A stretch of 64,000 nucleotides of DNA from Vulcanimicrobiota bacterium (GTDB lineage: Bacteria > Vulcanimicrobiota > Vulcanimicrobiia > Vulcanimicrobiales > Vulcanimicrobiaceae), in NCBI GenBank assembly GCA_963695225.1, contig OY968762.1:2560001-2624000 (forward strand), in the 5' to 3' direction. A program made the position numbers. Below, in pieces: positions 21,001-57,000 of the stretch. The first letter of the stretch is position 1. Each line of letters opens with the position of its first letter.

Positions 21001-24000
21001 GAGGGGTTGGCCGCCGGCGTCCGTGACGCGTGGTCGCATATCGACGAAGCCTGGCGGGGCGCCGCGGCGCAGCGTGAGGCCGCTGCGAAGGAATTCGATC
21101 CTGAGACCGTGATCGAGCGGACGCTCGCGCACTACGAGCGGCTCCTCGCGGCGAGCCCGGTCGGCGCCTAGGTCCGCGAGAACGAGAAGAGCCGGACGCC
21201 CGGGAGAATCCCCGCGCGTCCGGCTCGACGAAGCTGCTCAGGTATCCGAGGTGGTTAGAGCGCGTCCTCGGGATCGATCCAGGGCCACGGGATCAAAGCC
21301 AAGATCGGCGATGCGATGATCGTCCCGACGATGATGAGCGTGAAGATGAGCGTTGTCCCGAAAGTGGCTTCCATGGATCTCCCCCTCTTTTTCTCCAGGA
21401 TAGCACAGGGGGGTGTAGTCGGGGCTACACTCGCGGGAGGGCGCCCGCCCGCCCCTCGCGAGGGAGGCATTCGGGTAGCACAGGCTACACGAGAATCTTG
21501 CGCGCCGTGCTACCCTCCCTACAGGAGTTATCTAGAAAACTCCGGCGGTGCCGGCTCGAAGCCCGGTGTGCCGACGGCTCTTGTTCACGATGAATGAAAG
21601 GTTGCGCAGAATGCAGATTAAGACGGCGATCTCGCGTGGTCTCAGTGCGCTGGGGGCAGCAATTTTCGGGTTGTTCGCGTTCCTCCAGGTGCACGGCTAC
21701 GCGCTTGCGACTGAGCTCGATGGTAATAAAGAGACCATCGGCAAGCCCTACTATTACGGTGGATATCCTGGCCCGCCGACGTGGTTCTGGATCCTCGCGT
21801 TCAGCTCCATCCTGGCCGCTTTCGTGGTTTTCGCGGCCGACGCCAGCGTTCGCAACGCCGGCAAGAACCGTTAGTTTGTCCCCGTCGATCGCCTGAGTAG
21901 GAGGGTTGCGAAGAATGAGTTCTTTCTCCAAGCGTACGAAGGCGGTCTCGCGTGGCCTCGGTTTGGCGGGGCTCGTCCCCGCGCTGGTCGTGGCCATCCA
22001 ACAGGTGGCGCTGGCGGCGGGTGATACCTCCGTACCGAATCCCTACTACTACGGGGGATATCCTGGGCCGCCGGCATGGTTTTGGATCCTAGTCTTCCCC
22101 GGCTTCCTTGCGGCGCTCGTGTTCCCAATGGCCAGTGGCTGGCTGAGCAAAGCCTACAAGGAAGCAAACGCCAACCTGCGCAACAGGGGCTGACGCTTCG
22201 TCGCACTCGGGAGGTGGCCGTCTCCGGCCGCCTCCCGTAACGCGCCGAACTGCGGCTCCCTTTTGCTCGTCCGCTCGGAGCACTCCGGATAACGGAGTGT
22301 TTCGTGCCTTTCGCCGTCCTTCGCCGATCCTAGCCCCGGGCGCTCCGCCGTGGGGCATTTGCGTTTGTCGCCCAGGCGTTCTTGCGCGTGCCGGCCGTTC
22401 GACGCCCGCCGGCGCCGGCGGGCACCGGCCCTGACCGGCCTCGCGGGGCTTCACCCTTGGTAACGCGCGCTACAACGCGGCCGGGACCCGGATGCTACAC
22501 TCGCATGGAGCCGCATTGCGGCCAGCCAGCTTGAGAACGGGAGTCAACCGTGGCAGCTTTGGAAGATCAGATCGTCTACGAGGAACGCAACGACCTCGTC
22601 CCCGAGGTATATCGGGATTTGTTTAACAACGCGGATTGGATCGTGCACCGCTTCACCGTCTATGGCGTGTGGGTTTACGTCGCAACGTTCCTCGCGTGCC
22701 ACACCAGCCTGTGGTGGGGACGTCCCTGGTAGTCTTTTCGACCCGTTGGTTTTGCGCTTGATCGCGGCGCCGCCGGCTAGTAGCTAGAGCGCCGGTCTCT
22801 TAGTTTTAGAGAGGAAGAGCTTCATGGCCCAGTATGTACGTCGTCCGTACAATCCGTACAATCTCCGCGCCACCATCGGCGCCTCGCTCGTCGGCGCGAC
22901 GTTCGTCGCGTTCGTGATTCACTTCGTTTGCCTGGCATCGCCGCGTCTGAACGTCTGGCAGCCGGTCAATGCAGACGGTTCTGCTCCGACGCAGGCCGAG
23001 CTGCAGCCCGCACCCGTCGCTCCCGCACCCGGCGCGAAGTAGTCTTTACTCGTCGTCCGGAGGACGCCAGCGCGCGGGTCGAGTCGTAACGCCAACGCTC
23101 GCCCTCGGTCGATTGCGCCCGAGGGCGGTGCCTAATAGGGATTGGCAACATGGCAACAGATTTTGAATCCATCGAAACCTACTATCGCAAGCCTGGGAAG
23201 ACGATCCTGGATCGTACGATCTTCGGCGGCGATTTGTTCGACACGTGGGTCGGACGGTTCTACGTCGGGGTATGGGGCTGGATCTCGCTTGCGGGAGTCT
23301 TTGCCGCGTTAGCCGCCGTGTTTCTGTCTGCTCACGGATCGGGCGATTTCCGTTCGTGGCAGTCCGGGGACTACGACCTGCTCAGAGGAGCGGTCAATTC
23401 TCCGCCGCGCCAATACGGGCTCGGCGTAGCGCCGTTTTACGAAGGTGGAGCGTGGCAGCTCACGGTCATCTTCGCGACGGTCGCGTTCGTCGGGTGGGCG
23501 TTACGCGAAGTGGACATTTGCCGGAAGCTCGAGATGGGCTACCACATTCCGGTGATGTTTGCGACGGCCATCTCGGCGTGGCTCTCGGTTCAGCTCGTGC
23601 GGCCGCTCTTGATGGGCTGCTGGTGCGAGGGCATGGATCTCGGGTTCACGGCTCACTTAACGTGGACGTCCAACTACGGGTGGCGGTTCTTCAACTGGTA
23701 CATGAACCCGTGGCATGACTTAGCACTCGCCGGGTTCTTCTTAGGCGCGATGTTCCTCTCGATGCACGGCAGTGCGATCTTGGGGACGTTCAACACCGAC
23801 AAGAATCCGAAAGTCGAAATGTTGCGTGAAGACAATTTCTGGCGCGACTACGTCGGCTACTCGATCGGCGAGTACGGCATCCACCGGTTGCTGTACTACT
23901 GGGGCCTGTTCACGCTGATCAATTGCGACTTGATGGACATCACGGCCGGCCCGTTGGTGAAGGATTACATCGCGATCTGGCAGTGGCATCTCCCGTGGAT

Positions 24001-54000: not shown

Positions 54001-57000
54001 GCCGAAGTCGGTCCCGCATGCGTACGTTGGTGGAAAGCTCTTCAACGTCCAGGTCCTCAAGAAGTATGACTACGCTGGTGTGCTCAACCAGATGAATTAC
54101 TTCGCGCAATCTCTGGGCGTGCAGTGCCAGTACTGCCACAATCTGACGAACTACGCGTACGACACCCCGACGAAGAAGCTGGCTCGCAACATGATTGCGG
54201 GGACGATCGCGATCAACTCGACGTGGGTGACTCCGGACAAGAACGCGGTTCCGACGCAGGCGGTGTCGGGCGCGGTCGGATGCGCGACGTGCCATCGCGG
54301 TTCTGCGCGGTTGGACGTTCACTACAACATCGTTCCGGTGCAGTACGTTCAGTATCGTTACAAGACGACCAAGCAACTCGGTTACGTATACAACGCGATG
54401 TACGGCGTGGCGCGGTCGTTGGGCGTGAACTGCCTGTTCTGCCACAACACCGCCGACTTCGTCACCCTGCGGTACTACCCGACGAACAAGCTGGCGTTGC
54501 GGATGTTCTACATGGTGGACGACATCAACCACAAGTACTTCCCGCCGTCGGTCAAAGCGGTGACGTGCTACACGTGCCACCAGGGCGCGAAGTGGCCGGC
54601 AGCGCTGGTGAAGGCCGGCGACGACCAGACCCCGATCGAAAGCGTGGCCGCGCACCCGACCGCTCACTACAATCCCGGCGATCCGGTGGACATGAACGGC
54701 AACGTGAAGCAGCATCAGCCGATCAACGGCTGGAACACCCTCTACCCCGACCGGTTCTGGGGCTCGATGGGAGTCCCCGAGTAAATCGCGACTCCGCACA
54801 TCAACGCAAAGCAGAGGACCGGATCCGCAAGGGTCCGGTCCTTCTCGTTCAAAGAGAAGCATCGTGCCGCGCAATCAGCTCTACATCTACATCGCCATCA
54901 CCATCGTCGCCGTCATCCTGGGCCTCTTCAGCGGCGCCATCAGCGTCTGGCTCCGAGAACTCATCGAACACGGCCACGGCCACTTCTAGGTCCGGCTCCC
55001 AGTCCGGCGAAGGGTGAGCCTGCGCTTGTGGCCCGCGTCCGGGTCGGGGCGGGGTTCCTCCGCGGGGACGCCCGCGATTTCGCATCCATGCGAAATCGCT
55101 ACTCGTGCACTTTCCGGCTCTCGCCATCGTGGCTCCGCCGGAAAGCTGCACGCCCCGCGGAGAAACCCCGCCCCGACCCGGACGCTACCTTGGGGGGCTA
55201 CTGCATTCTTACCTCAGTGATCCATGGCCTCGAGTGCCGCTCTGAGCCCGTCGGAGCGGGAGCGGCCGCGGTCTGTTTCGCCTCCGTGCTCATGCCGTGA
55301 GGTAGCGGTTGGGGCGGGGGATGGTGGCTCCGCGGGGCGTGCAGCTTGCCCGCGGAGCCACGGATGGCGGGAGCGGGCAAGTGCACGAGTAGCGAATTCG
55401 CATGGATGCGAATTCGCGGGCGTCCCCGCGGAGCCACCGTCCCCCGCCCCGGCCGCGGGCAACACCGCGCACGAGCCGGCGGCCCCGCGGCCTAGCCCCC
55501 AGGTGCGCGGAGAAGGCCGGGCGATGAAGCCGAGGCTACAACGGGCGGGGCGCACTTTCGGTACACTTTGCATGGAGTATTGTCTCACGGCCCCGCCTCC
55601 ACGGGGTCCCGGCCGGGCGTTGCGAAGGCAATGTGCCGGGCGGGCTAGCCGTGAGCCGAGGCGCGTTTCCGACCGCTCGCCGGCTGCTTAAGGAGAAACC
55701 ATGGCTGTTTTCGCAGAGCTCACGATCCCGATCTTAGCAGTCCCCGAGCCCGAGGCTCGGTGGTTCGCTATTGCCAAGAAGATCGCCGAAGATACGGCCG
55801 GCTCGACCGCCGTTGAGCTCGAGAATTCCATCTTGAAGTTCAAGATCGTGTTCCCCGGGAACCTGACGTCGCTGGTTGCGAAGCTCGCGGATCGCAACAT
55901 CCAGGTCGGGAACGTCAAGGTCGTCCTCTCGGATTTCACGTTCGTCGGTGAAGACGTCGACGCGGGTCAGGTCGTCAAGGAGCTCAACGAATATCCGGGG
56001 ATCGCGAACGTGAGCTTCGACGGCAAGCGCCTCGAAGCGACGATCGCCCCGACGACGGGCAAGCTGCACGCGATCTACCGCCTCTTGATCGAGAACGGCA
56101 TCATCATCAAGACGCCCGTCGCCGCAGGCGCGTAAAGGGGCCTCGCAGACGATCGGCGATCGCGGACCGGCCGCGCGGGGGGGCGCGGCCGGCTGCGCGA
56201 AAACCGTTTCGACCGTCGAAGCGAGTGCCGTTACACTCGGTTCGAACGTCTGATAAGGCGTCGACGTCTGCAAGACCAGCGCCTTCGGCAGGCGCAAGGG
56301 CTACATACATTCCCCGTGTCACTCGTTACAATGCCGCTGGAAGATGTAGCCTCTGTGCCGACTATCACGGTTGCACTTCGGTTGGGCGAGTAGCCTAGCG
56401 AAGACGGCAAGGATCGAGAGGAGAACGATGAGCGCCCTAGCTACTTCGACGAACCCGCTGAGTCTGGGGAGCAAAGCTATCGTATCTCCGGGGGCTATGA
56501 ATTGATCGCAACGTCGGAACCGGATGTCCTGATCGTCGGCGGCGGCCCTGCAGGGCTCGCTACTGCGAAGTATTTGGCCGACGCGGGGAAGAGCGCGCTC
56601 GTTCTCGAGAAGCGCCCCATCGCGGGCGGTATGCTTTCGTCTTGGCGCGACCGCGACGGCGATTGGCTCGAGAGCGGCCTGCATTCGCTGTTCGGCGGCT
56701 ACGATCGCGTCCACCAGCTGCTCGAGGACGTCGGAATCTCGGGCAACGTGCGCTGGCAGCCGCACACGCTCACGTTTGCGATGCCGCCGCATTTCAGCTC
56801 GCGCTTCAACGGCCAGCCGATCTTCGAAGAGTTCGAATTCGTCAACGCGCCCCATCCGCTTCACGGCGTCGGCGCGGTTCTCAAGGGAAAGTACGTCTTC
56901 AATACCGTTGAGAAGCTCCAGTTCGCCAAGGGGACGCTTCCGGTGCTGTTCGGCGATCACGACTACGCGGAACGGCAAGACGATCTGACATACGTCCAGT

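Follow-up and report, generated by a model that had tools for sequence, protein, structure and literature searches.

Near-identical twin pufBALMC reaction-centre operons in a soil bacterium of the Eremiobacterota

Concerted evolution is known for the cyanobacterial psbA and psbD genes and for the amoCAB and haoAB-cycAB operons of Nitrosomonadales (Wang and Chen 2018, PMC6053082). In that paper, syntenic paralogues for subunits of energy-converting complexes group by species, whole operons are homogenised, and dosage together with compatibility of paralogues is proposed as the cause; the word "puf" occurs nowhere in it and is not among its 26 genes. Citromicrobium sp. JL354 carries two reaction-centre gene sets and was described as the only such case at that time; its copies are less than 80% identical, one of them incomplete and located inside an integrative conjugative element (PMC3338782). 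For Eremiobacterota, including Vulcanimicrobium alpinum, two sources describe the order pufBALMC, an Asp replacing the accessory His on the M side, a Tyr at the hydrogen-bond position of L and a native fused BchI-D beside bchM-acsF (PMC9758169, 10.1101/534180).

Here we describe a soil bacterium of this little-known phototrophic phylum (genome G000) in which the reaction-centre operon pufBALMC is present twice. Type II anoxygenic phototrophs are usually taken as having one puf operon, and the single published two-set case that the searches brought up involves a divergent foreign copy. The locus resembles the psbA/psbD and amoCAB/haoAB-cycAB cases in that syntenic paralogues group by species, encode subunits of an energy-converting complex and are homogenised as a whole operon. 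Unlike those, puf specifies an anoxygenic type II reaction centre with antenna and cytochrome, and its pattern is seen in only four genomes and one read set, probably from at least two separate duplications. The G000-type duplication, present in three genomes and run X3, falls short of the "recurrent" class of that study (at least five species). Like JL354, the organism is an anoxygenic phototroph with two pufLM(C) sets; the G000 copies differ in being both complete, 99.9% identical and derived from duplication, and do not fit a xenologous second cluster of the JL354 type.

The homogenisation process is already known and its anoxygenic reaction-centre setting appears new; literature searches, with subscription journals and supplements (e.g. 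Table S3 and Fig. S2 of PMC9758169) outside their scope, returned no report of identical duplicated puf operons and no psbA/psbD-like pattern in non-oxygen-producing phototrophs. Identical multi-copy operons, presumably arisen more than once and in one reaction-centre subtype only, extend the psbA/psbD pattern to anoxygenic photosynthesis. The twin operons offer a natural experiment on whether phototrophy is limited by the dosage of reaction-centre genes, and short-read assemblies and pufM counts can misjudge organisms with identical puf copies. Starting points for work on this phototrophic phylum, the least studied of all, are the divergent subtype, its uncharacterised small membrane proteins and the promoter motif found across the phylum.

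Organisation of the twin operons

In the window (the analysed stretch of 64,000 nucleotides; Table 1), two complete operons lie 28,539 bp apart, in agreement with the roughly 28.5 kb given in an earlier note on this DNA. Self-BLAST aligns 22455-26829 with 50991-55340 (4,383 bp, 98.0%), 27047-27492 with 55684-56129 (446 bp, 100%) and, in the upstream motif-pair region, 21523-22236 with 46192-46903 (87%), all as direct repeats, and so reproduces the three figures obtained before (4.38 kb for the first). From the LH-beta start to the stop of the 41-aa gene the copies align over 3,901 bp without gaps and differ at four places: 22817 (intergenic), 23575 and 23725 (both silent in pufL) and the stop codon of the 41-aa gene (TAA/TAG). 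The former count of three differences over 3.9 kb thus holds up to that final stop codon. Without any mismatch the copies run on for as much as 2,724 bp. Six of the seven proteins are identical; that all seven are was slightly off, because the 143-aa protein carries an extra C-terminal Ala in copy B (144 aa).

As had been noted, bchH, bchD, bchI and bchF are located between the copies. The inner segment starts with a carotenoid-isomerase-like gene, a geranylgeranyl-reductase-family gene, vWA, kinase and CRP-family regulator genes, and continues with canonical bchH, bchD, bchI and bchF. A segment enclosed by long direct repeats constitutes an amplifiable unit, and self-BLAST places this functional segment between such repeats. 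The ancestral puf slot, the crtB-crp interval further downstream, is empty in G000.

Table 1. Features of the two puf loci and their surroundings (window positions)
Feature	Position	Strand	Evidence or remark
39-aa single-helix peptide, copy A	21255..21374	-	protein identical to copy B; not homogenised
Promoter-like site of motif pair A, GTA-N8-TAC-N22-TAnnnT	21475..21516	+	
Motif pair A, two small proteins	21611..22193	+	YYYGGYPGPPxWFWIL motif and hydrophobic helix; partly homogenised
Promoter-like site of puf copy A, GTAACGCGCGCTAC-N22-TACACT	22460..22501	+	near 5' border of homogenised tract
LH beta (pufB) copy A	22550..22732	+	weak NCBIfam pufB, E 2.4e-4, below cut-off; operon position
LH alpha (pufA) copy A	22824..23042	+	weak NCBIfam pufA, E 2.9e-4, below cut-off; operon position
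pufL copy A	23150..24025	+	TIGR01157 E 2e-54, PF00124
pufM copy A	24043..25080	+	TIGR01115 E 1e-65; PDB reaction-centre M chains
pufC copy A, four CxxCH motifs	25124..26245	+	NF040706, PF02276
41-aa single-helix peptide, copy A	26325..26450	+	
Dispersed palindromic (REP-like) repeat, spacer A	26521..26679	.	about 50 loci genome-wide
Promoter-like site of 143-aa gene, copy A	26925..26966	+	
143-aa protein, copy A	27064..27495	+	two predicted small alpha/beta domains
Segment between repeats	27839..44421	.	gene content by profile families
39-aa peptide, copy B	44608..44727	-	
Bmp-family binding protein, locus B only	44779..45819	-	PF02608
Motif pair B	46284..46862	+	promoter-like site 46143-46185
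Two ABC exporter half-transporters, locus B only	47234..50802	+	PF00664, PF00005
Promoter-like site of puf copy B, GTAACACGCGCTAC-N22-TACACT	50996..51037	+	
puf copy B, whole block	51089..54989	+	
LH beta copy B	51089-51271	+	
LH alpha copy B	51363-51581	+	
pufL copy B	51689-52564	+	
pufM copy B	52582-53619	+	
pufC copy B	53663-54784	+	
41-aa peptide, copy B	54864-54989	+	
Two REP-like repeats, spacer B	55031..55460	.	
143-aa gene, copy B (144 aa)	55701..56135	+	promoter-like site 55526-55567
crtP, crtB, ogt, CRP-family regulator, bchF, bchC, bchX	56502..62787	+	contains the empty crtB-crp interval

The order pufBALMC with a four-haem PufC is that of the Eremiobacterota type II reaction centre, which is not known to have an H subunit; the search for this subunit gave one partial match, scoring 23.8 bits where the cut-off is 200 and lying a long way from the cluster. 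Besides gene order, the likeness to the Eremiobacterota / Vulcanimicrobium alpinum type includes Asp at the M-side accessory pigment site (YGDLDW against PHLDW in a purple-bacterial M chain; Asp in 20 of 20 rows), a Tyr that precedes the special-pair His and occupies the hydrogen-bond position of L (NWYMNPWH against N[WF]Y.NPFH in relatives, position read from the alignment) and the native fused I-D, which in G000 lies with BchH at contig 2.664-2.671 Mb beside acsF and bchM. Unlike the ordinary Eremiobacterota type, the G000 operon has left the crtB-crp slot and is joined by an ABC pair and additional genes for small membrane proteins; the divergent operon is accompanied by a second, canonical chelatase and in most cases is present in several copies.

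This divergent subtype occurs in 5 of 348 family genomes; its PufM and PufL are 51-55% and 55-62% identical to the ordinary type, and its branch measures 0.77 changes per site. All five genomes carry the second Mg-chelatase, and canonical BchH passes the cut-off in all of them against 1 of 12 others. Multi-copy puf was found in four of the five and in 0 of 25 ordinary relatives, most of the latter being fragmented assemblies in which repeats are possibly collapsed (three are single contigs).

Homogenisation within genomes

The sister species G001 and the genomes G030, G167 and G014 were matched by identities and copy numbers to G125, G138, G129 and G103 of the earlier note. Puf copies are 99.8-99.9% identical within G000, G167 and G030 and 98.8% within G001, against 78-88.5% between genomes, which reproduces the identity matrix behind the claim of homogenisation within genomes. 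Paralogues are closer within than between species, each multi-copy genome forming a clade (bootstrap 100) or a direct pair. At the same time both loci show complete synteny between G000 and G001, and the duplication is, as had been stated, old and common to the sister species: it is older than their split, with copies grouping by genome at silent and intergenic sites. Core sites of G000 and G001 group by genome, by locus and crosswise in 401, 0 and 0 cases (593/0/0 with G167). Upstream of the promoter, sites of these two species group by locus (44 vs 5). Between the end of pufC and the start of the 143-aa gene there are 89 genome-type and 0 locus-type sites, and in the upstream motif pair 51 and 16. 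These two regions, and identical intergenic DNA inside the operon, contradict the former view that homogenisation is limited to coding blocks. The tracts begin close to the LH-beta start and continue as far as the 143-aa stop; they include the motif pair less frequently and leave out the 39-aa gene.

Purifying selection alone might be supposed to keep the copies alike, the proteins being highly conserved between species (PufL 98.6% identical). Yet silent and intergenic sites are identical too, and the equally conserved 39-aa gene, which serves as control, differs silently between A and B in 14 of 40 codons with no amino-acid change. Silent differences between the copies amount to 2 of 292 codons in pufL and 0 of 346 in pufM, whereas G000 and G001 differ silently in 68 and 106 codons of these genes. 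Identity at silent sites thus exceeds what selection explains, and this contrast refutes an explanation that we regard as scarcely credible. Another internal control, tuf, was absent among the six translated long repeats.

We consider it highly improbable that copy identity results from repeat collapse or polishing in a long-read metagenome assembly. The G000 assembly is of metagenome type, its two contig ends overlap at only 95%, and the exact count of three differences is possibly an underestimate. However, polishing is unable to remove 11% divergence, G001 retains 45 differences between its copies, and independently built short-read assemblies contain a collapsed double-depth repeat with both flanks. 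In run X3, from a relative with 90-93% identity in the flanks, contig depth is 27.4-27.6 in puf against 12.5-13.6 on both sides (depth is not strict copy number), and loose contig ends match the B flank uniquely. Runs X1 and X4 (several related organisms) and X2 (shallow) were excluded from depth ratios. Metagenome contig L058 (3,898 bp) lies wholly within the 3,965-bp repeat of G030, stopping 53 and 14 bp short of the borders of that repeat. Since independent short-read data give two near-identical copies, the twin copies are not an assembly artefact.

In our opinion the sequence patterns make it very probable that the copies stay near-identical through ongoing homogenisation, most simply gene conversion. 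An old duplication of a unit with the 39-aa gene, motif pair, ABC pair, pufBALMC, 41-aa gene and 143-aa gene would have been followed by repeated homologous recombination, most simply RecA-dependent ectopic gene conversion (recA is present), keeping the expressed part near-identical. New alleles, from mutation or other strains, would enter one copy and then be copied across or erased. The G001 differences occur in clusters (one span of 1,651 columns holds no more than two of them, a length attained in 0 of 10,000 permutations) and might represent such imports that have not yet spread; the C-terminal half of the 41-aa peptide also differs in G001. Conversion would keep the subunits of one complex interchangeable.

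Homogenisation could alternatively proceed by crossovers, with direct repeats transiently amplifying the 28.5-kb segment and collapsing elsewhere. Such cycles would leave the same sequence pattern as gene conversion; G000, G001 and G030 all have their repeats in direct orientation, and G030 shows tandem duplication with reciprocal loss. In X3, though, the segment between the repeats has nearly the same depth (13.6) as the DNA outside (12.5-12.9), which speaks against standing amplification in this one population at contig-level depth, and the adjacent G167 copies are inverted, yet equally homogeneous. We find crossovers an unlikely route and prefer gene conversion.

Duplication and transfer in related genomes

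If each genome had duplicated its operon recently and independently, the copies would be too young to diverge. Repeated duplication does occur in the clade, because the flanks of the G030 duplication differ from those of G000 and the third of the three G167 copies lies within a block of about 17 kb with 99.0-99.8% identity. In G000 and G001, by contrast, both loci are shared gene for gene, with locus-type sites in the two 39-aa copies as well as ahead of each promoter, which refutes independent recent duplication there. In G030 a 305-aa ORF is 81% identical between the halves, against 99.9% for puf. Independent recent duplication is therefore very unlikely in our view, and we keep to an old one followed by homogenisation.

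The same two flanks had been ascribed to two other genera. This is true of G167, where both the A and the B flanks are present and B is inverted; in G030 the flanks differ, and synteny gives no orthology of its loci with those of G000. The G030 halves map onto the single cluster of G014 (a fourth-genus genome whose divergent operon is single, as reported) as a tandem duplication whose halves lost genes reciprocally, and the 305-aa gene of G014 pairs with one G030 copy (bootstrap 84). G030 also carries leftover bchZ and ABC remnants that G000 does not have. One shared duplication for all genomes is disfavoured because ABC, TPR, GT4 and other genes fall in opposite halves in G000 and G030. We infer that the G030 twin operons stem from a separate duplication and that the same outcome arose independently.

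Nor does sharing with G167 date the duplication to the genus split. RpoB rejects a grouping of G167 with G000/G001 (AU p=6e-6), whereas cluster genes do group them, and because of this conflict the doubled cluster probably reached G167 by horizontal transfer between the two lineages, as judged by a single marker, RpoB, in a tree of 23 genomes out of 30 (the other 7 were excluded because their genes were missing or fragmentary). The constraint test on all five divergent-type genomes used a quick search only.

Promoters, small proteins and the possible use of two copies

Judging from sequence, both puf copies keep a conserved activator-type, NtcA-like promoter, whose box, spacing and -10 element are the same but for one base. 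This base, in the operator box, depends on the locus throughout G000, G001 and G167 (G at locus A, A at locus B), as does the leader before the start codon in G000/G001, and copy B lies downstream of the motif-ABC operon while copy A does not. Some amo and psbA copies are known to be differently regulated, and the puf copies might have sub-functionalised promoters as well. We find this unlikely, the promoter elements being otherwise alike and the regions upstream of the G030 copies nearly identical. Scans for sigma-70 promoters and terminators stayed at shuffle level, and Rfam gave 0 matches.

A second copy could also persist without benefit, trapped because pop-out would delete essential pigment genes, with conversion repairing decay. 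In G030 both bchF genes are located between the repeats. In G000, however, the inner genes have counterparts outside (native BchH, fused I-D, second bchF, reductase and isomerase relatives), so pop-out would probably leave a working phototroph; still, the segment persists in G000, G001 and X3. That pop-out is lethal to pigment synthesis is rejected for G000, with its native chelatase and second bchF outside, and stands for G030 only. Trapping as a general explanation is conceivable but doubtful.

Extra dosage is the likeliest purpose of the twin operons: two copies might be kept for higher reaction-centre output, matched by the second Mg-chelatase and second bchF, a suggestion for which our confidence and our doubt are about balanced. 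The single divergent operon in G014 counts against a need for two copies. Two intact identical copies are not required everywhere, because two of three G167 copies share a pufL frameshift and the G001 copies differ at six PufC residues.

More speculatively, and with rather little expectation that it is true, the divergent operon with its private small membrane proteins, bchYZ and second Mg-chelatase might be a mobile high-output module that displaced the native puf in several genera. The twin operons would serve as recombination handles, and crossover would release or amplify a 28.5-kb circle (one full operon plus chelatase), driving spread and repeated duplication; the motif-pair and 39/41-aa peptides would be undescribed photosystem subunits.

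Of the 348 family genomes, five contain the motif pair, and these are exactly the five with the divergent reaction centre. ESM Atlas yielded nothing usable for the motif proteins or the 143-aa protein. The latter has no cysteines; its model (pLDDT 88.9) predicts an HMA-like first domain, and the best structure match had Z 9.5 and rmsd 2.0 (74 aligned). Homologues of the 143-aa protein, at 26-33%, are present in 6 of 12 ordinary clusters.

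An old duplication under continuing homogenisation

The two pufBALMC operons of the window, copies A and B, form direct repeats together with their 41-aa and 143-aa genes, and their starts lie 28,539 bp apart. The puf genes were named from NCBIfam and Pfam; both antenna genes fell below the cut-off and were named from weak matches and position. Copies A and B differ at four positions within the 3,901-bp stretch that begins with LH-beta and closes with the 41-aa stop: one position is intergenic, two are silent changes in pufL, and the fourth is in the stop codon itself. The longest identical run is 2,724 bp. 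At the 143-aa gene the two copies match without a difference for 446 bp, but the B protein has one extra Ala, so the earlier note's statement that all seven proteins are identical has to be amended for this protein.

The sister species G001 belongs to the same genus as G000, the genome of the window (rpoB 90.2% identical), and carries both puf loci in the same gene order. Among the four copies of these genomes, 401 sites of the 3.7-kb core group the copies by genome and 0 group them by locus. The two-copy feature is real, and the core of the reading proposed for it earlier holds, with the corrections given below: this is an old duplication under continuing homogenisation. Immediately 5´ of the promoter the pattern is reversed (44 locus-type sites vs 5; much of this stretch is unrelated flank). 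Selection as the cause of A/B identity is ruled out, because the adjacent 39-aa gene diverged silently while pufL and pufM did not. Its protein is identical in all four copies, with silent differences at 14 of 40 codons within G000; the corresponding codon differences are 2 of 292 in pufL and 0 of 346 in pufM. Between G000 and G001, silent codon changes number 68 in pufL and 106 in pufM. The G001 copies differ at 45 sites, including 6 PufC residues, and these are clustered (0 of 10,000 permutations were equally uneven). We interpret them as alleles that entered one copy from outside and have yet to reach the other. A recA gene was found in the genome.

The view that homogenisation is limited to coding blocks cannot be maintained. 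Spacers within the operon are identical between copies, and the pufC-to-143-aa stretch has 89 genome-type vs 0 locus-type sites; where this stretch does diverge visibly, a palindromic repeat is located. This repeat, about 160 bp long and present at ~50 genome loci, has no match in Rfam. Homogenisation has reached the motif pair, small genes beside the puf unit, in part (51 genome-type vs 16 locus-type sites; 90.5% identity within G000 vs 82-83% to G001).

The twin operons are no assembly artefact. In X3, a short-read run from a relative whose flanks are 90-93% identical, contig depth, a rough measure, is 27.4-27.6 on two listed contigs over puf vs 12.5-13.6 on three contigs either side, and two loose ends match B-side sequence of the window only. 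In the lineage of G030, a genome of another genus, a separate metagenome contig, 3,898 bp long, falls entirely inside the repeat of 3,965 bp; the junction to bchH is borne out by a further contig. Contigs lose rare variants, so these data establish near-identity of the copies rather than exact identity. L059, a metagenome contig from one more divergent-type species, starts within LH-beta and stops within the 143-aa gene, a weak hint of a collapsed repeat. The two ends of the G000 contig overlap at 95% identity, differing mostly by substitutions, which suggests a mixture of strains or a circular overlap left unresolved.

A divergent reaction-centre subtype

pufL is present in 30 of 348 family genomes. 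Five of them (G000, G001, G167, G030, G014) make up a divergent subtype, whose branch is 0.77 substitutions long with bootstrap 100 (no outgroup) and may reflect either a deep split or fast evolution. A PufM search gave six loci at 88-94% identity. The PufM of the window carries the Asp, and its PufL the Tyr, that are described for the reaction centre of this phylum. The divergent subtype is multi-copy in four of its five genomes; ordinary relatives, with the usual reaction-centre type, gave one match each in 25 of 25, just 3 of which are single-contig assemblies.

The same two flanks had been claimed for two other genera. They are indeed both found in G167, with B inverted, but G030 has different ones. 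G167 carries a third copy elsewhere, as part of a roughly 17-kb block that is almost identical, and two of its three copies have a common one-base pufL insertion, which may be genuine or stem from sequencing. Between these two lies a putative insertion-sequence ORF. The halves of G030 map onto the single G014 cluster, that is, a tandem duplication with reciprocal loss. Remnants of bchZ and ABC genes lie 5´ of the second G030 copy, whereas copy A of G000 is without any of them. The G030 duplication is also old, because its 305-aa gene copies are only 81% identical, and it is probably a second, independent case.

By RpoB, G167 falls into a different branch of the family and its grouping with G000/G001 is rejected (AU p=6e-6), whereas the cluster genes group it with them. 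Further, in G237, a congener of G030, the ancestral slot between crtB and crp is occupied by the ordinary type. Because of these two observations we propose that the module has probably moved between genera, a reading based on one marker and dependent on the binning of the multi-contig genomes.

The mechanism, homogenisation, is ordinary; the pattern matches concerted evolution of the psbA/psbD and amo/hao operons (PMC6053082). The gene list of that paper is without any puf gene, and the present case lies below its threshold of five species. Citromicrobium JL354 also has two reaction-centre sets, but these are divergent and foreign (PMC3338782). In the main text of the V. alpinum paper (PMC9758169) "copies" and "duplicat" are absent, and the literature searches brought up no account of puf operons duplicated in identical form, closed-access papers and supplements aside. 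It is the setting that is out of the ordinary: a whole anoxygenic reaction-centre operon was duplicated and homogenised repeatedly. This is confined to the divergent subtype, which is probably mobile.

Coordinates of the features discussed
Feature	Position	Remark
Copy A	window 22550-27495
Copy B	window 51089-56135
Palindromic repeat	window 26521-26679, 27642-27802, 55031-55460, 3603-3858
Canonical bchH/D/I	window 37062-43755	between the repeats
Divergent BchH + fused I-D, adjoining acsF and bchM	L076:3797-10981	phylum's own type
GTA-N8-TAC-N22-TAnnnT promoter-like sites	window 21475, 22460, 26925, 46143, 50996, 55526; L060-L071
Full palindromic box	window 21415-21428, 44769-44782
Motif-pair proteins	window 21611-22193, 46284-46862
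143-aa protein	window 27064-27495
Convergent membrane proteins	window 34525-35070, 35513-35965
HigB/HigA	window 8314-8904
G167 copies sharing pufL insertion	G167:C1:973652-974525 and 982566-983439 (L013)	adjacent, inverted
Divergent-type metagenome contig	L059:1-5646
Overlapping G000 contig ends	1-6809, 2972713-2979520

Why two copies might be kept

A canonical BchH besides the native divergent one was found in 5 of 5 divergent-type genomes vs 1 of 12 ordinary ones, and two or three bchF genes in each of the five. Canonical BchH also occurs in G191, of ordinary type. The native chelatase and a second bchF of G000 lie outside the repeats, so a cell that lost the inner 28.5 kb by recombination should still be a functional phototroph. 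The segment persists in G000, G001 and X3, which suggests selection for extra capacity. As far as sequence can tell, there is about an even chance that two copies are kept for dosage. Against this, G014 has a single copy and G167 may have just one intact pufL. That the second copy is trapped and neutral appears rather unlikely.

Both copies look expressed, because both retain GTA-N8-TAC, 22 bases and TAnnnT, a layout we take to resemble NtcA/CRP class II promoters. Different regulation of the copies seems less probable again than a neutral second copy. The strict motif has 10 occurrences in the 2.98-Mb genome, 6 of which precede puf, motif-pair and 143-aa genes of both copies, and of 12 ordinary relatives, 11 have a looser form 5´ of LH-beta. 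Three CRP-family genes are present in the window. The motif is a candidate for a phylum-wide CRP/NtcA-type photosynthesis regulon. At the 39-aa gene, only 12 bases separate the full palindromic box from a candidate -10 element; so close a placement might point to repression instead of activation.

Small proteins and neighbours

Among the 348 family genomes, motif-pair proteins (YYYGGYPGPPxWFWIL) are limited to 5, the very ones that carry the divergent reaction centre. They have a likely signal peptide and one Trp-rich helix without His, and may resemble LH-gamma-like subunits. For the 143-aa protein two small alpha/beta domains are predicted, the first HMA-like (Z 9.5), and metal-binding cysteines are absent; of 12 ordinary clusters, 6 have a homologue close to crtP/crtB. 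Beside a CRP-family gene lie two convergent paralogues, 63% identical to each other, which code for membrane proteins outside any known family, and a HigB/HigA toxin-antitoxin pair lies within folate genes upstream of the cluster.
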